From Squalus acanthias (Eukaryota), in contig JASTWF010000051.1 of NCBI GenBank assembly GCA_030390025.1, positions 1,674,001-1,738,000 of the forward strand: a stretch of DNA of 64,000 bases, written 5' to 3'. The notes under the pieces were generated by a model. The model saw only the letters and a program-made list of their open reading frames with translations, made no database searches and had not been told where the DNA came from. Every line of letters starts with the position of its first letter. Within the stretch, counting starts at the first letter, position 1. Position numbers and translations under genes: made by a program. Shown piece after piece: positions 4,656 through 55,443 of the stretch.

Positions 4656-5379
4656 AAGAGAAAAAAGAAAGACTTGCATTTATATTCCCTCGTTCACAAC
4701 CTCAGGACATCCCAAAGCGCTTTACAACCAATTAGGTATTTTTGAAAGGTAGTCACTGTTGTAATGTAGGAAACACGGCAGCCAATTTGCGCACAGCAAG
4801 GTCCCACAAACAGCAATATGACGATGACCAGATAGTCTGTTATAATGATGTTGCTTGAGGGATAAATATTGGCCAGAACACCGGGAGAACTCCGCTGCTC
4901 TTCTTTGAAATAGTGCCATAGGTCTTGTACGTTCACCTGAGAGGACAGACAGGGCTTGGTTTAACTCCCTCAGTACTGCGCTGAAGTGTCAGCCTAGACC
5001 ACATACTCCAGGTCCTGGAGTGGGACTTTGATAGCGGATTGTTTACCGTGGTTACTGTCGCAACAAAGGATTGTTAGTCCTTCAACAATAACTTCCACAT
5101 GATTCAGGCCTGAATGGGTTATTCAACAACAAGTTTTAATATATATTGACTCAACAGTGTTATAATACAACTATCTTCAGATTACATTAAATGACAAGCA
5201 AGTAATACAACCTGGCTCCTTGGTCCAGAGTGATCAATTCAGGCTCTCTGGGCTGCCTGCTGTGGACTTCAGACCATCCTGAGAGCACTGTAACTCTTGG
5301 GAGGGAACAGGCTCTATCTTTATACTATTTGGCTACCTTGGGCTGCACAGACACATCTCTGTTCCTATATCTTAGTCAT

Positions 5380-5694
5380 GATGTGGAGATGTCGGTGTTG
5401 GACTGGGGTGGACAAAAGTGAGAAGTCGCACAACACCAGGTTATAGTCCAACAACTTTATTTGAAATCACAAGCTTTCGGAGCGCTGTCCTCGCATCCTG
5501 CCTCTAAGTCTTAGTTTCCCAGCTTTTTAAGTAGCTGGGTCTCTTAGCAAACAACACTCTTATCTATTCTCTGTCTTTGAGTTCCCAAACTGTCTTTTGT
5601 TCACACTTCACCTGACGAAGGAGCAGTGCTCCGAAAGCTTGTGAATTCAAATAAAGCTGTTGGACTATAACCTGGTGTTGTGCGACTTCTCACT
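5380..5694. mobile_element. PLE-derived foldback element with 14-bp TSD; centre replaced by a 122-bp templated insert
   Basis: TSD TATATCTTAGTCAT at 5366-5379 and 5695-5708. The inverted arms match the 46991-47209 copy. Confidence 0.85.
5607..5645 (+). ncRNA. Minimal type I hammerhead ribozyme motif
   Basis: TTCAC-CTGACGA-A-GGAGC agt GCTCC-GAAA-GC-TT-GTGAA: both core boxes, stems I and II, and palindromic AAGCTT stem III. Confidence 0.75.
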
Positions 5695-6499
5695 TATATC
5701 TTAGTCATTGATCCCACCCCCATGCTGACTTTGTGTTAGCTGACTTCACAGGGGTCATTACTGCAGCTGCTTCATCCACTATCTGCTTGTATAACAGTTT
5801 GTTCCTCTCAGGAATGTGTGAGCTTCTGTTATCAGAATACTGTCCTCGCATCCTGCCTCTAAGTCTTAGTTTCCCAGCTTTTTAGGTAGCTGGGTCTCTT
5901 AGCAACCAACACTCTTACCTATTCTCTGTCTTTGAGTTCCCAAACTGTCTTTTGTTCACACACAGATACAACTCAGTTTCTCCCCTTTCCACTGCTGGCG
6001 CAACGCGAGCTGGGATGCTTGACTACTTTCTTAGATTCAAGCCAATGTTAAAACATTCTAACAGGCGCGAACCCACAACCTCCTGATTCAGAGGTAAGAG
6101 TGCTACCACTGAGCCACGGCTGACACCTGCTGCTCATGTCAAGAATAAACACCAACACGGACTGGTTGGGCCAAATGCCTGTTTTCATGTTGCCTTAGCT
6201 TTGTAATTCTGTGTGGAACGCCATCAATTGCTTTTGGAAAGTCTAAGTACACAACATCATAGGGTTTATCGCAGTCAACTCGGATTGTTGCTTCCTCAAA
6301 GAAGTCAAGGATCTTTCTGATCAGACATTTGCACAGCCGTTTTTCTGAAAGTCCTGCGCCATGTCTAGGTTTAATCTTATGTTGGTTTCACCATAGCAGG
6401 GACATGACAGCATGAGTTGGGGAATAAACTGTTACTAAAATATTCAAAAAGTCATAGCTGACTCTGATAGTATGACATGATTTCTTATTCTCACTTTCT

Positions 6500-7286: not shown

Positions 7287-7341
7287 CTGAGGTGTAAGCA
7301 GTGGAGAAGACAACACTGTACAATTTATTTTCTGAGTCAAA

Positions 7342-7431
7342 AGTGAGAAGTCGCACAACACCAGGTTATAGTCCAACAGTTTTATTTGAAATCACAAGCT
7401 TTCGGAGCTGCTGCCCCTTCGTCAGGTGAAG
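7342..7431 (-). mobile_element. Single-arm PLE terminal repeat with hammerhead motif on the minus strand (7392-7429)
   Basis: Minus strand reads TCAC-CTGACGA-A-GGGGC agca GCTCC-GAAA-GCTT-GTGA. Confidence 0.8.
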
Positions 7432-8139
7432 TAAAGGAATACGAATCGACAAAGCATATATAGATAGAGAACAATGCATGTGTAGCGTACAATGTCAGAC
7501 GACTACATTTAATCCTCCTGACTGCCTTTCGTCACACCTCGGCAGAGAAACAATCAGGTCAGCCAGGAAGGCACCACATCAAAGACATAGCAAGATACAA
7601 CTGAGACAATGAGGTGGGGTTACAGGGGGTCTAATGTGTCAAATGCTGCAGTCTGTATGGAAAACCATAAACTTTAAAAATGTTACTTTTTTTTTACTGG
7701 AAATCACTTTCTTAGTCAGTCAGGTGTCCAACACTCGGAAATCCATCACCATATATAAAAGTCTCCAAATAAGCTAATGAAAAGGCACTGCCTGTACTGT
7801 TTCTGTTTACTGGATGCGGAATGCACATTTTCACTCAGCAGTGACACTCCTCCCTTACCTACGTCCAGATAGCTTAGGCTTAGATCAGCAGAACCAAGTC
7901 TTAGGCACTCCCAAATGTGTGGACGGGTACTGCTGGAGATTATCCAGCTAAAACTGCAGAGATCAACACTTCAGAGCACTGTGAAGCTGCCTGCTGTTTA
8001 ATTCAGCTAGAAACACACTATCTGTTAGGGTATTGGTTTACAAGGCAGAGTGGGAAGAATTCCAGCCCCCAGTGACAGGTTTACTCCCCAAGTTTCTACT
8101 CGTGAGCCAAGCTGGCAGGTCAATCATTAACGGTGCCTT

Positions 8140-10443: not shown

Positions 10444-11658
10444 ATAGAAACATAGACATAGAAGATAGGAGCAGGAGTAGGCCATTCGGCCCCTCGAGCC
10501 TGCTCTTTCATTCGATGAGATCATGGCTGATCATCCAAACTCAGTACCCTGTACCTGCCTTCTCCCCATATCCCTTGATACCTTTAGCTTTAAGAAATAT
10601 ATCTAACTCATTCTTGAATATATTTAATGACTTGGCCTCAACTACCTTCTGTGGTAGAGAATTCCACAGGTTCACCACTCTCTGGGTGAAGAAATTCTTC
10701 CTCATTTCTGTCCTAAATGGCTTACCCGTTATCCTTAGATTATGACCCCTGGTTCTGGACTCTCCGACCATCGGGAACATTCTTCCTGCATCTAGTTTGT
10801 CCAGACCTGTCAGAATTTTATATGTTTCGATGAGATCCCCTCTCATTCTTCTATACTCCAGCGAGTATAAGCCCAATCGGCCCAATCTCTCCTCATATGT
10901 CATTCCTGCCATCCCAGGTATCAGCCTTGTGAATCTTCGCTGAACTCCTTCCATGGCAAGAACATCCTTCCTCAGATAAGGCGACCAAAACTGCACACAG
11001 TACTCAAGGTGTGGTCTCACCAAGGCCCTGTACAACTGCAGCAGGACCTCCCTGTTCCTATACTCAAACCATTTCACTATGAAGGCCAACATACCATTTG
11101 CCTTCTTCACCGCCTGCTGCACCTGCATGCTTACTTTCAGCGACTGGTGCACAAGGACACCCAGGTCTCGTTGCACTTCCCCTTCTCCCAATCTATTGCC
11201 ATTCAGATAATAGTCTGCCTTTCTGTTTTTGACACCAAAGTGGATAACCTCGCATTTATCCACGTTATATTGCATCTGCCATGCTTCTGCCCACTCACCC
11301 AACCTGTCCAAATCATCCTGGAGTTTCTCGGTATCCTCCTCGCAGCACACACTCAAACCCAGCTTTGTGTCATCTGCAAACTTGGAGATATTACATTTAG
11401 TTCCCTTATCTAGATCATTAATGTATATTGTGAATAGCTGGGGTCCAAGGACCGATCCCTGCGGTACCCCACTAGTCACTGCTTGCCACTCGGAAAAAGA
11501 CCCATTAATTCCTACTCTCTGCTTTCTGTCCGCCAACCAGTTCTCTATCCAAGTCAATACCTTGCCCCCAATCCCATGTGCCTTAACTTTACACACTAAT
11601 CTCTTATGCGGGACCTTATCGAAAGCCTTTTGAAAGTCCAAATACACCACATCTACTG
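10444..11658 (-). mobile_element. Young 5'-truncated CR1 inserted antisense into the older CR1
   Basis: Intact 369-aa RT/C-terminal ORF (10541-11650), tail microsatellite, and GTC on both flanks. Nearly identical to 19373-21210. Confidence 0.95.
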
Positions 11659-13213
11659 GTCTTCATGGAAGAAGATGCAAAAAATTTCCCAGAGATAGTG
11701 GAGAAATAGAATGAGGAACTGAAAGAAATTAGCATTAGTAAAAAAATAGTACTGGAGAAATTAATGGGACTGAAAGCCAATAAATCCCCTGGACCTGATG
11801 GCCTACATTCTCGGGTGTTGAAAGAGTTGTCTATAGAGATAGTGGATGCATTGGTTGTCATTTTCCAAAATTCCATTGATTCTAGAATGGTTCCTGCAGA
11901 TTGGAAGGTAGCAAATGTAACCCCACTATTTAAGAAAGGAGGAAGAGAGAAAATGGGGAACTATAGACCAGTTAGTCTGACATCAGGAGTAGGGAAAATG
12001 CTAGAATCTATTAATAAGGATGTGGTAACAGGGCACTTCGAAAATAATAATAGGATTGGGCAGAGTCAACATGGATTTATGAAAGGGAAATCATGTTTGA
12101 CGAATCTGTTAGAGTTTCTTGAGGTTGTAACTAACAGAATAGGTAATGGGGAACCAGTGGATGTGGTGTATTTGGATTTTCAGAAGGCATTTGATAAGGT
12201 GCCACACAGGAGGTTATTAAACAAAATTAGGGCTCCTGGGATTGGGGGTAATATATTAGCATGGATTGAGGATTGGTTAACGGATAGAAAACAGAAAGTA
12301 GGAATAAACGGGTCATTTTCGGGTTGGCAGGCTGTAACTAGTGGGGTACCGCAAGGATCAGTGCTTGGGCCTCAGCTATTCACAATCTATATCAATGATT
12401 TGGATGAGGGGACTAAATGTAATATATCCAAGTTTGCTGATGATACAAAGCTGGGTGGGAATCTAAGTTGTGAGGAGGATGCAAAGAGGCTCAAAGGGGA
12501 TATAGACAAGCTAAGTGAGTGGGCAAGAACAAGGCAAATGGAATATAATGTGGAGAAATGTGAAGTTATCCACTTTGGTAGGAAAAACAGAAAAGCAGAG
12601 TATTTTTTAAATTGTGAGAGATTGGAAAATTGTTGGTGTTCAGAGGGACCTGGGTGTCCTTATACACGAATCATTGAAAGTTAACATGCAGTTACAGCAA
12701 GTAATTAGGAAAACAAATGGTATGTTGGCCTTTATTACAAGAGGATTTGAGTATAAGAATAAAGACATTTTACTGCAATTATATAGGGCCCTGGTGAGAC
12801 CACACCTGGAGTATTGTGTACAGTTTTGGTCTCCTTACCTTGCCATAGAGGGAGTGCAACAAAGGTTCACCAGACTGATTCCTGGGATGGGGGGATTGTC
12901 CTATGAGGAGATATTGAGTAAACTAGGCTAATATTCTCTAGAGTTTAGAAGAATGAGACGTGATCTCATTGAAACATACAAAATTCTTACAGGGTTTGAC
13001 AGGGTAGATGCAGGGAGGATGTTTCCTCTGGCTGGGGAGCCTAGAACCAGGGGTCACAGTCTCAGGATAATGGGTCGGCCATTTAGGACTAAGATGAGGA
13101 GAAATTTCTTCACTCAGAGGGTGGTGAATCTTTGGAATTCTCTACCACAGAGGGCAGTGGAGTATATTCAAGACCGAGATCGATAGATTTTTGGATATTA
13201 AGCGAATCAAGGG

Positions 13214-21617: not shown

Positions 21618-22117
21618 NNNNNNNNNNNNNNNNNNNNNNNNNNNNNNNNNNNNNNNNNNNNNNNNNNNNNNNNNNNNNNNNNNNNNNNNNNNNNNNNNNN
21701 NNNNNNNNNNNNNNNNNNNNNNNNNNNNNNNNNNNNNNNNNNNNNNNNNNNNNNNNNNNNNNNNNNNNNNNNNNNNNNNNNNNNNNNNNNNNNNNNNNNN
21801 NNNNNNNNNNNNNNNNNNNNNNNNNNNNNNNNNNNNNNNNNNNNNNNNNNNNNNNNNNNNNNNNNNNNNNNNNNNNNNNNNNNNNNNNNNNNNNNNNNNN
21901 NNNNNNNNNNNNNNNNNNNNNNNNNNNNNNNNNNNNNNNNNNNNNNNNNNNNNNNNNNNNNNNNNNNNNNNNNNNNNNNNNNNNNNNNNNNNNNNNNNNN
22001 NNNNNNNNNNNNNNNNNNNNNNNNNNNNNNNNNNNNNNNNNNNNNNNNNNNNNNNNNNNNNNNNNNNNNNNNNNNNNNNNNNNNNNNNNNNNNNNNNNNN
22101 NNNNNNNNNNNNNNNNN
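21618..22117. other. Assembly gap (500 N)
   Basis: Run of exactly 500 N, probably a placeholder length. Confidence 0.99.
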
Positions 22118-22749
22118 CCAAAAGGTGTGGATCTCGTAAATGAGATGGAATGGGTGTTTCAGGTCCTCCCATTCATTTTGCTCGGTTTCATTGGTGGTGC
22201 GCCCATTTTGTGGGGCGTCCAAAAGAATTAGGTAGTAGCCCCGATACCTAGGCATCTCCAAATAGGGGATTAAAGAGGGCTAGACAGGATCCAAAGCTAA
22301 GTTGCTCTCTTCTGTACAGAGATGTCAGGCCAGGGATCAGTGCTGCAGACCTTCTGGATGTTATTTTCTCAGGCCTAAGGTAGCATTGGACTTTCCTCCC
22401 TATGTCCAGGTGCCAGGCTGTGCCAGAAGGTGAGCCTCTACCGGAAGAGCTTCTGGAGCATGCAAATGATCTGAACCTGCAAATCCACTTGGGTTCAGTA
22501 CTTCGGATGAGCGGGCCTAACTACTGTTCAGTCACAGGGCCCACGAGAAAATCGGCCCCAATATTTCCATGACAGCATAAATCTTGTCCATTTATTACAT
22601 GAGCTAAATTTTCCACTTGGAAGTTGACAAATTGGTAGATTAAACCAAATGTTTGGTAATAGACGATCAAAAGGAAAACTGAGTCTGAATAATTGACAGA
22701 GCTAGATCTGCCATCATGTGCTTTTAAGGATGTCAGCAAATAAGGCTTA

Positions 22750-29935: not shown

Positions 29936-32051
29936 ACATATGAACATTGCATTCCAACATACAATGAGAACGGTGGGGAGAAACCATCAGGCCTCTCAAG
30001 CCTCCCCTGTCCAGACATGGTGCAATATTGACCCATCCGCTATCCCTGTAACTTCCTGGGGAAAAAAATCCAGAGAAAGTAACTTGTGGCCGATTCAGGA
30101 AAAACTCTGAAGTTCCTCTCTGACTCCCTAAGTCAATCAAGCAAAGATCCAGAAGACCAAGGGAGCCCATAACTCCTTGTAATCACAGCGAACTAGCAAC
30201 TCACTCTCTAGAACAGAAAACATCCTTTTCACTCAGGAACTTTCAAATTCCCATTAAAGGACTGTAGCAGGTCCAGAACCACTGCTTATTTAGGCAGACG
30301 GGCCAATGACTTGCTGTGAAAATAAATACTTCCTGGCACCCAACCTATTAATAATAACACTACTTTTTATGGGGTGAATTACCGTGGGGGTTCTCCCACT
30401 CGTTCGCCATAACTGTGGCAGAAAACTCACCCGCTATGTATGCATGTGCTCTAGTATTATCATCCTTATTCATCTTAAATAACTTAACCAGCTTAGGTCC
30501 AATCCCTTACTGTTTTAAAAACCACAATAAAATTCTCTCTAAATGTGAATTTCTCTGAAGTAAATAGCCCTAACTAATGGAGCTTTCCTCATTACTAACA
30601 GCTCTTAGACTAGGCATCATTGTGGCCTCCCACCTCTGGATCTTCTCTGGAATCTGGTTATGTTTCACCATGGTGTTGTGATCAATAAACTGCACACCAA
30701 ACTTCAAGTATGAACATACCAAGTCTTATACAGCCCAAGTAGTGCTTTTCATTTATATTATCTTCATTTGCATTGTTCTCTGATGAATTCTGCAAACCTC
30801 CATTTTGATGCAGCCTCATCGGAACAGAGGCAGTGGACTGACAAGAACGTCTCCTTTAGCACACCTGCTTCATAGTGTGCTGGCATCCTTTTATACCAGA
30901 AGGTCAGCTTCTCTGTTTTTTTCCTTAGTTTTACCTGGCATTAGTTTATACTCATTAGAGGCTTGGATAATTTAATAATCATTCAACCTCAGGCTCTGGA
31001 AGTTTAGACTTCCTGGATCTTTTAGCTAAGAATTTCACTTTGTTGCATTGTTGCAGAGGAACCCATAGAAGCAAGGGTTTCATTTCAGGTTATTAGGTGC
31101 TTAAGGTTAATTAGTGGAAACGGGCTTTCATTTGGTGGCTTGGTGATGAATCAATGCATGAAGGAGGGGAAAATGCCATTCTAAAGCTCTTAAGGTTTTG
31201 TGGGCATTTTTTTCCCATGCTGGGGTACTGTTCCACAAAGTTTAGTCACAATACGGTACCTTGCAGAAGATGCTATTCACATATAATCCTGACAGTGAGC
31301 GTTAGCAATTATTTGACTGTGGGACATACCAGTTATGCCCAATCCTGTCCTCAATTGACATCCGATTTTCCCCTCCCTAACCAGGAACATAACACCAATT
31401 ATAGCACCCTCATGGTCTCCTTGGCCTGAGGTCAGCGAATCAACCTGGAATCTTTCTGTCTATATGGCCAATTGTTTGCTGGATAAATTCATTGCTTCAC
31501 TGTGGAGGCTGAAAAATGGATTTCTAATGATTTCACACTATCTGAACTATTCTGTAGTTACTTCAAAACAGCCTGAAATGCACACAGAAAAATCTATCCA
31601 GAGAGACGAGAAGAGAGTACTTATTAGTCACGTAATTTGTCTGTTGAGTATAGTCTCTTTCAATTTCATTAGCGTTTATAAAAACAACATTTTTCCTTTC
31701 ACTCTGGCGGAGGACACTGAAGAGTGATTGTACTTTACACAAAAGTCATCTATTGTCACATTAGTATACAAAAAACATTTGCTTCATAAGCCTGAATTCA
31801 TCTACTAGAGAAATAGTATCTTGCACAAAAGTAATAATTGTCTGTATAAAATTCTGAATACTGGAAATTGGAAATAATACAGAAATGTTGGAAATCCACA
31901 ACGGGTTGATCAGCATCTGAAAATTGGTTAATGTTTTAAGTTCTGTGAAAGGTCATACCCAAAACATTAAACCATCTTTTCCTTCAGTTACTGAGGCAAC
32001 CTTTCAGAATTTACTTTTGCCAATTGTTTCCTCTCCTCTCCTGAAAATGTG

Positions 32052-32812
32052 ATTCCTGCTGGGTACGGTTCCAGAATCCTGCTGGGGGTATGGTTCCAGA
32101 TCGTGCTGGGGTACGGTTTCCAGAATTCTGCTGGAGGTACGGTTCCAGAATCGTGCAGGGGTACGGTCCAGAATCCAGCTGGGGTACGGTTCCAGAATCC
32201 TGCTGGAATACGGTTCCAGAATCCTGCTGGAGTACGATTCCAGAATCCAGCTGGCTACAGTTCCAGAATCCTGCTGGAGTACGGTTCCAGAATCCTGCTG
32301 GGGTACGGTTCCACAATCCAGCTGGGTACAGTTCCAGATCCTGCTGGGGTACAGTTTCCAGAATCCTGCTGGGGTACAGTTCCAGAATCCTGCTGGGGTA
32401 CAGTTCCAGAATCCTGCTGGAGTACGGTTCCAGAATCCTGCTGGAGTACAGTTCAGAATCCAGCTGGGCTACGGTTCAGAATTCCTGCTGGGGAAAGGTT
32501 CCAGAATCCAGCTGGGGTACAGTTCCAGAATCCAGCTGGGGTACAGTTCCAGAATCCTGCTGGGGTACGGTTCCAGAATCTGCTGGGGTAAGGTTCCAGA
32601 ATCCAGCTGGGTACGGTTCCAGAATCCTGCTGGGGTACGGTTCCAGAATCCTGCTGGGGTACGGTTCCAGAATCCTGCTGGGGTACGGTCCAGAATCCTG
32701 CTGGGTACGGTTCCAGAATCAGCTGGGGTACTGTTCCAGAATCTGCTGGTGTACGGTTCCAGAATCCTGCTGGAATACGGTTCCAGAATCCAGCTGGTGT
32801 ATGGGTTCCAGA
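32052..32812. repeat. Minisatellite, ~24-bp unit GGGGTACGGTTCCAGAATCCTGCT, about 30 copies
   Basis: Direct tandem repeats with 1-bp indels and CCTGCT/CCAGCT variants. Confidence 0.95.
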
Positions 32813-40632: not shown

Positions 40633-43192
40633 ATAGATACATAGATACATAGATACATAGAAGATAGGAGCAGGAGTAGGCCATCCGGCCCTTCGAGCCT
40701 GCTCCGCCATTTAATGAGATCATGGCTGATCCTCCAATTCAGTATCCCGTCCCCACCTTCTCTCCGTAACCCTTAACCCCTTTTGCCTGTAGAAATATAT
40801 CTAATTCCCTCTTAAATATATTTAATGAGCTGGCGTACACTGCCCTCTGTGGCAATGAGTTCCACAGGTTCACCACCCTCTGAGTGAAGAAATTCCCCCT
40901 CATTTCTGTCCTAAATGGTTTAGCCCTTATCCTTAAATTATGTCCTCTAGTTCTGTTCTCACCTGCCAAGGGAAACATTCCTTCTGCATCTAGTCTGTCT
41001 AGACCTGTCAGAATTTTATACACTTCTATGAGGTCCCCTCTCAATCTTCTAAACTCCAGTGTGTACATCCCTAAACTACATAGTCTCTCCTCATAGGTCA
41101 ATCCCGCCATTCCTGGTATCAGCCTGGTGAATCGCCGCTGCACCCCCTCCATGGCAAGAACATCTTTCCTCAGATGAGGCGACCAAAACCGTACACAGTA
41201 CTCGAGGTGTGGTCTCACCAGTGCCCTGTACAGCTGCAGCAAGGTATCCCTGTTCCTGTATTCCAACCCTTTTGCTATGAAGGCCAGCATACCGTTTGCC
41301 TTCTTGATCGCCTGTTGCACCTGCATGCTCGCCTTCAGTGACTGGTGTACAAGAACACCCAGGTCTCTCTGTACTTCCCCCTCTCCCAATTTATTGCCAT
41401 TTAAATAATAATTTGCCCTCCCGTTCCTGCACCCAAGGTGGATAACTTCGCACTTGTCCACAATATAGTGCATCTGCCATTTATCCGCCCAATCACCCAG
41501 TCTGTCCAAATCGCTCTGGAGCTTCCTGGTCTCCTCCTCTGAGCCCACCCCTCCTCCTAGTTTAGTGTCGTCTGCAAATTTGGAAATGCTGCATCCGACT
41601 CCCTGATCCAGGTCATTAATGTAAATTGTGAACAGCTGGGGACCCAGGACAGATCCCTGTGGTACCCCACTTGTTACTGCCAGCCATTCAGAAAATGAGC
41701 CGTTTATTCCAACTCTCTGTTTTCTATCTGACAGCCAGTTCTCTATCCACGTCAATACTTTCCCCTTTATCCCATGAGCTTCAATTTTCCCTGCTAATCT
41801 TTTATGTGGGACCTTATCGAAGGCCTTTTGGAAGTCCAGGTACACCACATCTACTGGCTCTCCCCCATCTATTTTACCAGTTACTCCCTCAAAAAATTCC
41901 AATAGATTAGTCAAGCACGATTTACCCTTTGTAAATCCATGTTGACTCTGTCCTCTCCTGTCCCCATTTGCTAAGTGCTCCGCTATTTCATCCTTAATGA
42001 TGGACTCCAGCATTTTGCCCACAACTGATGTAAGGCTTACAGGTCTGTAATTACCTGCTTTTTCCCTACCCCCCTTTTTGAATAGTGGGGTAACGTTAGC
42101 TACCCTCCAATCCATGGGCACTGTTCCCGAGTCTAATGAATTCTGAAAAATCATACTTAGTGCATCCGCTATCTCTAGGGCCACCTCCTTCAGCACCCTA
42201 GGATGCATGTTATCAGGCCCTGGGGATTTGTCCGCCTTCAATCCCTTTAGCTTCCTTAACACCATATCCTTAGAGATATTGACTTGCGTCAGTTCCTCCT
42301 TTGCAAATGTCCCTATTTTTCCCGATATCCCAGGGAGGTTTTTTGTGTCTTCCTTCGTAAAGACTGACCCAAAGTATGCATTTAGTTGGTCTGCCATTTC
42401 TTTATTTCCCGTTATATATTCCCCCGTATCTGACTGCAATGGGCCAACTTTGGTTTTCACCAGTCTTTTCCTCTTGATATACTTATAAAAGCTTTTGGAG
42501 TTAGTTTTTATATTTTCCGCCAGCTTGCTTTCGTAAGCTATTTTGCCCCTCTTGATTAAGCCCTTTGTCCTCCTTTGCTCTATCTTAAACTGTTCCCAAT
42601 CTTCCGCTCTGGCGCTTTTTTTGGCTAATTTATACGCCCTATCTTTGGATTTTATGCTGTCTCTAATTTCCCCTGTTATCCACGGTTGAGTCACCTTTTT
42701 AGATTTCCTTTTATGCCAGATTGGTATAAACAATTTTTGCAATTTTGTCATTCTACCTTTAAATGCTTGCCATTGTTTATCTACCTCCAGTCCTCCCAGG
42801 AACGTTGTCCAATCAGACCTACTCAGTTCCCGTCTAATGGCATCATAATTCCCCTTGTTTAAATTCAGGACCTTAGTATCTGAGTCAATTTCTTCGCTCT
42901 CCATTTCGAGTGAGAAATCGATCATGTTATGATCGCTCTGACCCAAGGATCCCCGTACAACAAGATTACAAATTAGTCCCTTCTCATTGCACAGTACCCA
43001 GTCCAATATAGCCTGTTCCCGAGTTGGTTCCTCGACATATTGATCCAGATAACCATCCCTTAAACACTCAAGGAATTCCTCCTCCTCATTATTTTTACTG
43101 ATTAGGCTATTCCAATCTATATGTAAGTTAAAGTCACCTATGATGACAGCTGTGCTCTTATTGCACGCTTCTCTAATTTCCCTCTATATATA
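40633..43192 (-). mobile_element. Young CR1, 5'-truncated, uninterrupted ORF2
   Basis: 755-aa ORF at 40739-43006 and tail (TATGTATC)n. Confidence 0.96.
40739..43006 (-). CDS. CR1 ORF2 fragment (C-terminal EN + RT); the frame stays open upstream to ~43190
   Basis: SDHN, NYRPVSLTS, YLDFQKAFDKVPH, GVPQGSVLGP and FADD. The upstream in-frame sequence reads EIREACNKSTAVIIGDFNLHIDW. Confidence 0.9.
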   Translation of the reverse strand: MDWVLCNEKGLICNLVVRGSLGQSDHNMIDFSLEMESEEIDSDTKVLNLNKGNYDAIRRELSRSDWTTFLGGLEVDKQWQAFKGRMTKLQKLFIPIWHKRKSKKVTQPWITGEIRDSIKSKDRAYKLAKKSARAEDWEQFKIEQRRTKGLIKRGKIAYESKLAENIKTNSKSFYKYIKRKRLVKTKVGPLQSDTGEYITGNKEMADQLNAYFGSVFTKEDTKNLPGISGKIGTFAKEELTQVNISKDMVLRKLKGLKADKSPGPDNMHPRVLKEVALEIADALSMIFQNSLDSGTVPMDWRVANVTPLFKKGGREKAGNYRPVSLTSVVGKMLESIIKDEIAEHLANGDRRGQSQHGFTKGKSCLTNLLEFFEGVTGKIDGGEPVDVVYLDFQKAFDKVPHKRLAGKIEAHGIKGKVLTWIENWLSDRKQRVGINGSFSEWLAVTSGVPQGSVLGPQLFTIYINDLDQGVGCSISKFADDTKLGGGVGSEEETRKLQSDLDRLGDWADKWQMHYIVDKCEVIHLGCRNGRANYYLNGNKLGEGEVQRDLGVLVHQSLKASMQVQQAIKKANGMLAFIAKGLEYRNRDTLLQLYRALVRPHLEYCVRFWSPHLRKDVLAMEGVQRRFTRLIPGMAGLTYEERLCSLGMYTLEFRRLRGDLIEVYKILTGLDRLDAEGMFPLAGENRTRGHNLRIRAKPFRTEMRGNFFTQRVVNLWNSLPQRAVYASSLNIFKRELDIFLQAKGVKGYGEKVGTGY

Positions 43193-44645
43193 TTTCTCGA
43201 GACATGGTAACTACTATTTGGCCAACAGCTCCATGACAGAAGGGTGGGAGGCAAATGATTCCCCTGCCTAAAACTGCTGAAAGGCAGTTTGCAGAATCCA
43301 TTCTTAGTTCCACTGCTGAGAACAGATTTTTCTAATCGCTTCAGACAAAGATTGTGGACATTCAAAGCTGTGAACTCAACCACTTCTTTGTTTGATACTC
43401 ATGCAGGTAACATAGCCCTCGCTACAAGCTTAATTTGTCAGGTGCAATTCTGGTGTAAATGGAAGAATTTCTTGGACAGCAGTTTTTACCCTCGTGTATA
43501 CATGCACCACTTTGGGGCTGGGCACATCTTCTGCCAGCAGTCCATTCTATTGGGATTTATTTTAGAACAAATGTAACTCCGATGTATCTGAATTATGCCC
43601 CAAATTCCAGTCCCCTATGCCAGGATGGAATTTGTGGCCCTTTGGGTTTCAACATGCCCGTTTTTGTAATTAAATGATTTCTGCTATTTGCAGTGGCAGA
43701 AACCGTATTTCTGTGCAGGAGTGTCACCATTATCTGAATCCTGTCTCAAACGTTGCCTGGTTGTTAAGCAATCAGTTGCAATCGGTGTCAAATGTATTGC
43801 AACAGAGCCACAGTAACAAGTGCAGACAAAGACAACTTTTATCTGTTAAATTTGAATCCCTGTTAGAGGTGAGACATGGTATGTGGCCTCATGGTGGTGC
43901 TGCATTCTTTTTATTTCTGGTGTGTCTGATTTGGAGGGGATAGGTTGCCTTGGTAAGAATATCTCCAACTAATCCCTTCACTTTTTAGAAGCCCAGCGTG
44001 AGAAAAGGCCACTCTGCCCATCATGTTTCAATCCATCCAGAGTCTACATGTGATTATTCTATCATGCATTTCATTTCCCACACCTTCAGCACATAATCTG
44101 TTGATCCTCTTCTTTAAGGGACACTAAGCCCCTTTCTCTACTGAAACATAATCAATTCTCTTAATATCTGTACATCCTTCAATCCTCCTTCTCAACAGGA
44201 TTGATCCAACTCTCTTTCAAAGGTGTCCATTGACTCCAAATCAACGACTTTCCTGGGAATCTGTTCCACTATCCTGTGTGGGGTGGGAAAGCTATTCATT
44301 ACCTTGCTTGAAGCTTGGAAATGTTATACTTGTGTCCTAGGCACAAAGCCCAAGCTAAATTGCCAGCTTACTTCAACCTTATTTTTAGCCTTCATTAGAT
44401 GGTGTAGACGAAGCTGGTTGTTTAGAATGTGCATTACAGAAGTCACAATGATGACAGTTTTTATTAATCAAAAAACCAGTGCTTCTTACCCATGTTTCTT
44501 AGCCTAGATTAAACTAGTCTATAAGTTTATAGCTACATTTAAGATTGTGAGCAAGAACTACTGCCACTGTGACTTGTATTACAATTTATAGTGGAATTGA
44601 AAGGCTGAATTCACCCCAACACTTACCCCTGCATCTAATTTAATT

Positions 44646-44733
44646 GAGAGGTCGCACAACACCAGGTTATAGTCCAACAGTTTTATTTGAAATCACAAGC
44701 TTTCGGAACTATCGCTCCTTCCTCAGGTGAAGT
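44646..44733 (-). mobile_element. Single-arm PLE terminal repeat with hammerhead motif on the minus strand (44693-44730)
   Basis: Minus strand reads TCAC-CTGAGGA-A-GGAGC gata GTTCC-GAAA-GCTT-GTGA. Confidence 0.8.
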
Positions 44734-45239
44734 GATCTGTCTATTCAATTTAGAATATTAGGAAATGAATATCTTGACCTGGTATATATAGGGTATACAT
44801 TTGATTCCACTATGTACCATCCTTTTGTGAATTGAGGAAGGCTAGCATCTGTTTTTATCTTGTCTTGTTCACTGACCTAGATCCAAGCTTTTTGCAGTAC
44901 TTCTCAATGTATTTAGTTCAAGGTCACATGACTGGAAGTGAAGTTGTTATGACAACACAACTTGTTTCCATGCGATTTTGAAGGCTGAAAACCTAAATTA
45001 AATACGAGCACTTTGCACTTTATTATGTCTGTACTAAAGTTCTGTTCAATCTGCACAAGTTGTGATGTTGAAACAGCTCACGGGGGTTAAGATATTTTTA
45101 CAATATACTAATAGAAATTTAACAGTATTAACTATAGATTTGCTGAACAAATCTGCAAAGATAGCATGACAAGCTATTAATGCCCTTGAACAAATGCTAA
45201 GACATTACAACAATTTGGAATATGCTGTCAGAATTGGTA

Positions 45240-46685: not shown

Positions 46686-46990
46686 CTAGCAGGGAAGAGG
46701 GTGCAGGAAATTGAATTCCTGTTGTCACACATTTTTTTCAAAGCAGTGGCAAACATAAATCTCTCTGTGATTGCAAAACTGCAACCTTTTTTATTTTAAA
46801 CATCAGAACAACAAGGTGCAGCCAGAGAAAACTTTTCAAGGGTGGCTATCTTGTGAATTTGATGCTGGTGAATGCTGGGAAACAGAAAGGTTTGTACATT
46901 GCACTAGAGTACCAGTGAGGAAGTTGCAGATTTCCACAGAACAGTGCTTGTTCCAGCAAGCCTGGATCGTCAAATGCCTTTTAAATCTGT

Positions 46991-47209
46991 GATGTGGAGA
47001 TGCCGGTGTTGGACTGGGGTGGACAAATGTGAGAAGTCGCACAACACCAGGTTATAGTCCAACAGCTTTATTTGAAATCACAAGCTTTCGGAGCGCTGCT
47101 CCTTCGTCAGGTGAAGTCTTCACCTGACGAAGGAGCAGCGCTCCGAAAGCTTGTGATTTCAAATAAAGCTGTTGGACTATAACCTGGTGTTGTGCGACTT
47201 CTCACATTT
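46991..47209. mobile_element. PLE-derived foldback element: perfect 92-bp inverted arms, 1-nt spacer, long TSD
   Basis: 47025-47116 is the exact reverse complement of 47118-47209. TTTTAAATCTGTGAT is repeated at 46979-46993 and 47208-47222. Confidence 0.92.
47120..47156 (+). ncRNA. Minimal hammerhead ribozyme motif (mirror copy on the minus strand, 47078-47114)
   Basis: TCAC-CTGACGA-A-GGAGC agc GCTCC-GAAA-GC-TT-GTGA. Confidence 0.78.
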
Positions 47210-47339
47210 TTAAATCTGTGATTACGGGAACATCAAAAACATCATAACATTAGTAGGGCAATCTGTACTCTCAACCTTATGATCGTTAAACCCTGAACAC
47301 TGAGGTACCATCAGATCCTGATGCTGACCAGAATTCAAA

Positions 47340-53249: not shown

Positions 53250-53994
53250 AATCTCTGTGTAGGAAGGAAGCATTTTCCTTTCGGTGGTATAACTGACAAA
53301 GACTGAGGCTAGGACTGTCACTGAAGCCAATGTGATTGAACTAAGCATTGAATAAATAAAACTCTTTTCCAGCTCTATACTGAGACATGTAACAGGCACA
53401 ATTCAACAAAAATATTTCTTTGCCGCTATCAGCTGGCAGGAATATTTGTGACTGTGGAATTCATAAAGCACACTTTTTGACAGAAATGGGTTGCTTAAAC
53501 GTTTATAATCTAGCATAATATACTGCATCTCAGCCTACGGAATCAATCCTTCAGCTATGACCTACTGATCCAGACAATTTCCTCATTAACGATCATGGTT
53601 TTTGCAGTATGACAACCATTGACAGCTAATGATTGTGTATTTTATTCTAAAGTCTACAAATGAGCACATTTTACTGTATTTTAAAGAATGCAGCAGACAT
53701 AACTTTGAGCTGCAAAGAATCACAGTTTACAAAAGCAGAAAGATATCCATGTTAGTATTATTTACATGCTATACCGAGTAAAGCTATGCATTTTGTTGTT
53801 TTTTTAAATTATATCTTCAGGCTAAGAGATGTCAGTGCTGGGAATGAACGTTTTGTATTTTGGGGAGCCAGTGTCAGTATCAAACAACCCTATGTCAGTT
53901 AACAGGAATATTTGTGACTGTGGAATTCATAAAGCACACTTTATTTGTTGGGGTGGGGAGGAGCTGAAGATATTAGGTGGGATTGTCGGATAGA

Positions 53995-55443
53995 TACACT
54001 GGCATCTATCCGACAATGTGGAAAACTGCCCAGGTATGTCCTGTCCACAAAAAGCAGGACAAATCCAACCCGGCCAATTACCACCCCATCAGTCTACTCT
54101 CAATCATCAGTAAAGTGATGGAAGGTGTCATCGACAGTGCTATCAAGCGGCACTTACTCACCAATAACCTGCTCACTGATGCCCAGTTTGGGTTCCGCCA
54201 AGACCACTCGGCTCCCGACCTCATTACAGCCTTGGTCCAAACATGGACAAAGGAGCTGAATTCCAGAGGAGACGTGAGAGTGACTGCCCTTGACATCAAG
54301 GCAGCATTTGACCGAGTCTGGCATCAAGGAGCCCTAGTAAAACTGAAGTCAATGGGAATCAGGGGGAAAACGCTCCACTGGCTGGAGTCATACCTAGCAC
54401 AAAGGAAGATGGTTGTGGTGGTTGAAGGTCAATCATCACAGCCCCAGGAGTTCCTCAGGGCAGTGTCTTAGGCCCAACCATCTTCAGCTGCTTCATCAAT
54501 GACCTTCCCTCCAACATAAGGTCAGAAATGGGGATGTTCGCTGATGACTGCACAGTGTTCAGCGCCATTCGCAACTCCACAGATAATGAAGCAGTCCATG
54601 CCTGCATGCAACAAGACCTGGACGATGTTCAGGCTTGGGCTGAGAAGTGGCAGGTAACATTCGCGCCACAGAAGTGCCAGGCAATGACTATCTCCAACAA
54701 GCAAGAGTCTAACCACCTCCCCTTGACATTCAATGGCATTACCATCGCCGAATCCCCCACTATCAACATCCTGGGGGTCACCATTAACCAGAAACTTAAC
54801 TGGACCAGCCACATAAATACTGTGGCAACAAGAGCAGGTCAGAGGCTAGGTATTCTGCGGAGAGTGTCTCACCTCCTGACTCCCCAAAGCCTTTCCGCCA
54901 TCTACAAGGCACAAGTAAGGAGTGTGATGGAATACTCTCCACTTGCCTGGATGAGTGCAGCTCCAACAACACTCAAGAAGCTCGACACCATCCAGGACAA
55001 AGCAGCCCGCTTGATTGGCACCCCATCCACCACCTTAAACATTCACTCCCTCCACCACCGGCGTACCGTGGCTGCAGTGTGTACCATCTACAAGATGCAC
55101 TGCAGCAACTCGCCAAGGCTTCTTCGGCAGCACCTCCCAAACCCACGACCTCTTCCACCTAGTAGGACAAGGGCAGCAGGCGCATGGGAACACCACCACC
55201 TCCAAGTTCCCCTCCAAGTCACACACCATCCTAACTTAGAAGTATATCGCCGATCCTTCATCGTCGCTGGGTCAAAATCCTGGAACTCCCTACCTAACAG
55301 CACTGTGAGAGTACCATCACCGCACGGACTGCAGCGGTTCAAGAAGGCGGCTCACCACCACCTTCTCAAAGGCAACTAGGGATGGGCAATAAATGCTGGC
55401 ATTGCCAGTGACGCCCTGATCCCATAAACAAATTTAAATAAAA
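53995..55443 (+). mobile_element. Family A LINE, 5'-truncated (RT + C-terminus), one frameshifting deletion at ~54445
   Basis: ORFs 53977-54471 and 54528-55379, with A-rich tail. Confidence 0.94.

Follow-up and report, generated by a model that had tools for sequence, protein, structure and literature searches.

Organization of the window unit

The window analyzed here, a stretch of 64,000 nucleotides of Squalus acanthias DNA, contains an insertion of about 220 bases that consists of two head-to-head copies of the ribozyme-bearing pseudo-LTR (pLTR) end of a Penelope-like element (PLE). The two arms (47025-47116 and 47118-47209) are complementary at 92 of 92 positions around a single base, 47117, which we number +1 of the element; in this numbering the ATG of the element's open reading frame (ORF) is +128. 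Arm B (47025-47117, minus strand) is an inverted pLTR copy that runs from +93 to +1 and ends exactly at the inferred transcription start. Arm A (47118-47209, plus strand) is a direct pLTR copy covering +2 to +93; it has no tail and marks reverse transcription (RT) start site A. Only the left side carries 34 additional nucleotides (46991-47024, minus strand, element +127 to +94), which constitute the PLE tail, were missed by the first-pass annotation and mark RT start site B, in line with a bimodal distribution of 3' ends. In full-length copies this tail ends directly before the ORF ATG. A 15-bp direct repeat, visible in the sequence of the plus strand at 46979-46993 and 47208-47222, flanks the unit as a target-site duplication; the final three bases of its left copy are shared with the tail end and the first two of its right copy with arm A, leaving 10 bp unambiguous. 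The first-pass annotation's perfectly complementary 92-bp arms around one nucleotide and its flanking repeat of 12-15 bp are thus both borne out.

The same annotation had described a hammerhead motif in each arm (CUGACGA, stem II, GAAA, the palindrome AAGCUU and stem I). The motif is present, but only once per strand: a predicted minimal type I hammerhead lies in the right arm on the plus strand (47120-47156, core 47124-47130, predicted cut after 47152), and another in the left arm on the minus strand only (47078-47114, predicted cut between 47082 and 47081). An Rfam search of the window returned no hammerhead at E ≤ 1. An AATAAA at 47162-47167 (+46 to +51) comes just after the predicted cut and before either RT start site; were it used, the mRNA would have a 3' repeat that lacks the start sites.

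Three further insertions of the family lie in the window, at 5380, 7338 and 44642. The first (5366-5708, no strand assigned) had been taken for a second two-arm example. It does carry its own 14-bp duplication (5366-5379 and 5695-5708), but it is a different unit: its tailed arm B stops near 5487, before the catalytic core, so that no hammerhead core is present, its arm A starts from +1 (5605-5695), and the two are separated by a 122-bp filler (5485-5606), copied with 97.5% identity from host DNA about 350 bp away (5840-5961). The filler probably represents a templated insertion during joining. At both of its ends we noticed two to three bases of microhomology. The other two insertions, both on the minus strand, are single-armed and without tail: one (7338-7708, far end approximate) extends beyond +1 into 3' UTR sequence of the element, and an older one (44642-44735) ends at about +1.

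The source element

Searching the genome with sequence patterns, we found 205 places at which the tail continues into an ATG and further codons. Six long loci were retrieved, two of which contain open ORFs of 891 and 892 amino acids that begin right after the tail and lie between direct repeats about 3.1 kb apart. This partial tandem arrangement, pLTR-ORF-pLTR with direct pLTRs at about 3.1 kb spacing, is seen in five of the six loci; the sixth has no 5' pLTR. Both ORFs match RVT_1 above the cut-off (37 and 35 bits). A PDB sequence search gave no match, and neither did Pfam for the last 160 residues, for which the nearest Atlas clusters (0.95-0.96) carry PF01541 (GIY-YIG) on 18-31% of their members. 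In the translation, spaced IVY and WYIG motifs are visible, which may be GIY-YIG-like. The source is an autonomous Penelope-like retrotransposon present intact in the same genome. Because the 5' pLTRs of loci L076 and L077 are identical to the window's arm plus tail at 127 of 127 positions, the window unit is two copies of the pLTR end of this intact element. Identity to an intact source copy also makes it unnecessary to suppose, as had been done, that the arms were homogenized, and the arms of other copies often differ; the alternative suggestion of a very young insertion is consistent with the data.

Many subfamilies, represented by L117, L121, L151, L158, L172, L174 and others, differ in their 3' UTR and promoter sequence and have a very variable loop II; they have one downstream pLTR plus tail in common.

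Paired start sites and the template of the two arms

The 3' ends of 502 arms fall into two classes, at about +88-97 (A) and +127-139 (B). In the predicted fold of the source leader, the two sites fall on a second stem-loop and immediately behind it. The two classes agree with the pair of tail-delimiting RT start sites of the anole PLE (PMC11167929). Head-to-head pairs in an unbiased stretch, the first 5.6 Mb of contig C1, almost always combine the two: 43 of 45 are A+B, two are A+A, each more than 1 kb long, and none is B+B. This one-of-each pairing suggests that each nicked target strand seems to use a different start site. The anole PLE enzyme cleaves and extends both strands in vitro and starts at two tail-delimiting sites; that study found no start-site difference between strands in vitro, which speaks against such an asymmetry (PMC11167929). 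We favor the reading, at a probability of roughly 0.85, that the window unit is a minimal PLE insertion, likely built at insertion by priming on both nicked strands, from two start sites and on one RNA.

Allelic differences between arms bear on the number of templates. This comparison draws on the 69 pairs, among 111 young ones (174 pairs in all), in which both variable sites were readable. Site +52, which is about 50% heterozygous, differs between the arms of only six of the 69 pairs, where random pairing predicts 36, and the type of 3' stem I is concordant in 79 of 79. The concordance at +52 indicates that, for the most part, the two arms were copied from the same template or from closely related ones. 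A one-base allele in loop II behaves differently, with arms differing in 16 of the 69 pairs as compared to 26.5 under random pairing, a frequency for which one template copied without error does not account. In long arms the loop II alleles are linked to subfamily, and within the class that carries G at +52 loop II differs in six of 33 pairs, equal to random pairing. Either the reverse transcriptase adds a base at a pause, or the RNA is switched near the ribozyme.

The latter would fit a variant in which the insertion has the same origin but the arms derive from two RNAs, or from an RNA switch near the hammerhead, carried by a dimer of the enzyme or of the ribozyme. Subfamily-linked loop II alleles that nevertheless differ within pairs, at the random rate in the +52 G class, argue for this variant, as do the predicted dimeric state of the anole enzyme (PMC11167929) and the activity of minimal hammerheads as dimers (PMC4209133). 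We nonetheless consider it unlikely, though far from negligible, given the concordance at +52 in 63 of 69 pairs and of stem I type in every pair scored, and because the same loop II pattern would arise if the reverse transcriptase inserted one base while pausing.

A stop at +1 and a proposed insertion mechanism

We scored 5' ends with a 49-copy reference panel; for the 502-arm set, extension was counted to near -142. Arms end at +1 to +4 in 45 of 138 cases. At least 18 of the 138 run more than 115 nt past +1, and another template route therefore exists. Of 56 long copies, 47 have a TATA-like box 30 nt upstream of +1 and the other nine have it 31-32 nt upstream, a spacing for which the motif filter that these copies had passed itself selected. 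The +1 base stands in an initiator-like context. Junctions from the ORF back into the pLTR resume at +1 or -1 in ten of ten cases.

The base before +1 was counted by hand in the first 100 places of a list of 1,556, found with a pattern that allowed G, A or T and excluded C and some contexts: G occurs 70 times, A 21 and T nine. An A stands before the G in 47 of these 70, and many of the G can come from the mate arm; the count pools them with any untemplated G. At complete 5' ends of LINE-1, an extra G marks copying of the cap (PMC11702581). If the base before +1 came from a cap, the junction in the window would have a single base of microhomology. An older subfamily behaves otherwise: it shows few stops and no strong stop at its predicted +1, and only 15 places without a genomic base before that position (three of them mere substitutions), at which G, with five of 15, is not dominant; this argues against a universal rule. 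From these end patterns we lean slightly toward run-off at a putatively capped start of the RNA.

In the mechanism we propose, the PLE enzyme would use the nicks in both target strands to prime reverse transcription of a single RNA, entering it at two start sites separated by 34-40 nt. Both cDNAs would copy the same short leader, stop at or near the putatively capped 5' end of the RNA at the presumed transcription start, +1, and become joined head to head through short microhomology. The finished hairpin is predicted to bury its hammerheads, which would make it a dead end.

More tentatively, and at less than even odds in our judgment, the stubs could be trapped double 'strong-stop' products. 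Synthesis from one target strand would begin at site A and from its partner at site B, near the capped 5' end of the RNA; it would run off at the cap, and strand transfer would be needed for the rest of the element, as in retroviruses. If true, regeneration of the pseudo-LTR, the tail and the inverted repeat would be explained in one model, for which thousands of natural intermediates in the genome would provide test material. How inverted and tandem pLTRs form in PLEs is stated to be unresolved in two papers (PMC8557442, PMC2377424), and a literature search that covered few subscription papers found neither a strong-stop or twin-priming model for PLEs nor a paper on this shark family.

The hammerhead in the source element and in the foldback

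Across 36 hammerhead variants the core is kept, 95.7% of cells are paired and stem II is paired in all. A single stem I pair is C-G in some rows and U-A in others, a switch seen in 15 of the 36 and probably due to few events, and the outer stem I pair is broken in 14; related rows inflate these counts. In the source element, selection acts on the hammerhead motif. RNA folding of the source leader gives probabilities of 0.57 for stem I and 0.79 for stem II. In the foldback, by contrast, both stems are near zero, and on either strand the hammerhead fold lies 64 kcal/mol above the hairpin. The antisense arm, which is transcribed first, is predicted to sequester the hammerhead, and this also holds in models of co-transcriptional prefixes. 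Not one of 138 arms ends at +37, the predicted cut, and cleaved RNA thus does not seem to be the template. The unit is a common stub and likely no self-copying ribozyme element. A retrozyme would have direct tandem units and two hammerheads or more on a single strand; here each strand carries one motif.

Direct pLTR tandems of about 200 bp were considered separately as candidates for a true retrozyme and were rejected: ten exact matches with eight junctions do not make a family. In these loci (L047, L051, L053, L055, L057, L073 and L311-L320) a pLTR, the tail and the first 70-85 nt of the ORF are followed by a new pLTR from +1. With two hammerheads on one strand, theirs is the sole retrozyme-like layout seen. 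Their junctions suggest a favored jump site in the start of the ORF.

Recurrent formation across the genome

Exact matches to a 35-nt pLTR word number 65,792 in the genome, and at least 1,952 loci have two arms with no more than 30 bases between the cores. Chance is excluded as their origin, because a control pattern gave zero matches. A search for the tail found 3,708 places, of which 100 listed places were classified: 69 are two-armed, 29 are unpaired within 1.6 kb (wider pairs being counted as unpaired) or were dropped as duplicates (L021, a segmental duplicate of L020, was left out), and two have no scored arm. The 69 two-armed copies comprise 55 distinct junctions and range from 119 to 1,354 bp, with three 1,258-bp rows being neighboring copies of one event; 53 measure at most 260 bp, and lengths are concentrated at 200-235 bp. 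Of the 69, 38 have duplication-like matches 12-13 bp in length. The window's junction occurs in only two of the 69. Of 15 sampled copies with the window's centre, 12 fall on four tail-arm haplotypes (one partly unread), three have reverse polarity, and all are scattered across subfamilies. Identical insertions repeated by local segmental duplication were also observed, at G000:C1:20117210-20127500 (L180, L181) and at L020/L021.

An inverted, 5'-truncated copy with a one-sided tail and a target-site duplication describes the window unit, and its layout is that of 69 of the 100 tail-picked places. Of the two options raised by the first-pass annotation, the census supports the first, a recurrent extreme truncation of a PLE, since the centres are variable and form a continuum with longer PLE copies, the outcome which that annotation had named as the sign of mere truncation. 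Units of this kind form recurrently at favored junctions and trace to no single master copy, though some secondary copying may have occurred.

The second option was a retrozyme-like family, mobile on its own and cleaving from either strand. In this reading a non-autonomous foldback family, retrozyme- or MITE-like, would be mobilized as one piece: transcribed, then inserted anew by the PLE enzyme. Such a family could account for the recurrence of the window's exact centre in 224 of the at least 1,952 short two-arm loci and for the clustered lengths, and PLE cis-sequences can act in trans (PMC3846280). A discrete family should, however, keep its centre and length constant and share variants of its own, whereas the copies spread over 55 junctions, and the same centre stands on four haplotypes and in both polarities. 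The unit contains one hammerhead per strand and no tandem, and its hairpin outcompetes the hammerhead fold by the margin given above, in co-transcriptional prefixes too. We regard this option as very improbable.

A further possibility is that one cDNA snaps back on itself and is copied, or that the arms were homogenized after insertion. The 5' reach of the arms speaks to this directly: among 69 pairs, arm A extends further in 30, arm B in 29, and the two are equal in ten, and because A is the longer arm in 30 of 69, yet only B has a tail, neither arm can have been copied from the other alone. Although the window copy's arms are perfect and self-priming has been proposed for palindromic PLE junctions (PMC3846280), snap-back is most improbable here and is largely refuted for the family by this reach, by the loop II differences in 16 of 69 pairs and by the host-derived filler that splits the arms at 5485-5606, while it may apply to individual copies with equal ends.

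Relation to known elements

The layout of the window unit is published: insertions of endonuclease-bearing (EN+) PLEs consist of an inverted, 5'-truncated pLTR and a one-sided tail of 30-40 bp (PMC3846280, PMC8557442), and dual hammerhead motifs 100-700 bp apart on opposite strands have been noted (PMC4209133). The window unit is this layout at minimal size. As in Pen2a_Av (PMC3846280; scheme in PMC8557442), pLTRs stand head to head with a tail on one side and a target duplication; a single ORF combines RT with a C-terminal region that is putatively GIY-YIG-like in the source element here (PMC3846280, PMC8557442), and the pLTR has a TATA box and an initiator-like motif (PMC3846280). Unlike the EN+ insertions of those papers, 53 of the 69 two-arm insertions here are at most 260 bp long and without an ORF, and 5' ends are concentrated on a single base.

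PAc, a Poseidon element of Anolis carolinensis (PMC11167929), shares the two tail-delimiting RT start sites, the extension of both target strands, a hammerhead upstream of the start sites and the use of uncleaved RNA as template (compare 0 of 138 ends at +37 here). Its ORF starts inside the hammerhead, whereas here the ATG follows the tail, and in vitro the start sites are identical for both target strands, whereas here insertions pair A with B. With the minimal metazoan PLE hammerheads (PMC4209133) the motif shares the core boxes, an extra base before stem II, a short stem I and a palindromic helix III; stem II is 5 bp in the predicted motif here. Non-LTR retrozymes (PMC7229834; bioRxiv 10.64898/2026.07.22.740005) are likewise short, non-coding and PLE-related with a type I hammerhead, but form direct tandems in which a single strand carries two or more hammerheads, as opposed to one per strand in inverted orientation. 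In LINE-1 twin priming, as proposed here, the second target end primes a second cDNA, the target-site duplication is kept and joining proceeds by microhomology; LINE-1, however, copies adjacent parts of the RNA, whereas both cDNAs here cover the same 92 nt (PMC11702581).

What is new is the pairing of one A with one B arm, the mostly shared template and the pile-up of 5' ends, often preceded by G, at a base 30 nt below the TATA box. Together these features suggest two cDNAs running off a capped RNA. A single unit is ordinary, and its value is statistical, as a record of how PLEs insert. Three measurable regularities (A+B pairing, the stop at +1 and arm-specific loop II alleles) yield predictions for the existing in vitro PLE assay, and the genome offers 65,792 pLTR-word matches together with intact ORFs for studying PLE insertion. 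Thousands of near-perfect 90-bp hairpins could, if transcribed, feed RNA silencing or editing.

Other sequences in the window

LINE-type RT frames, which we presume to be CR1-like, occur at 40739-43183, 10541-11662 and 11710-12684, and one of them is open for 814 amino acids. A run of 500 N spans about 21620-22120. Another LINE family is present at 1027-2078 and 53977-55379, and a minisatellite with a 24-bp unit occupies 32051-32812.
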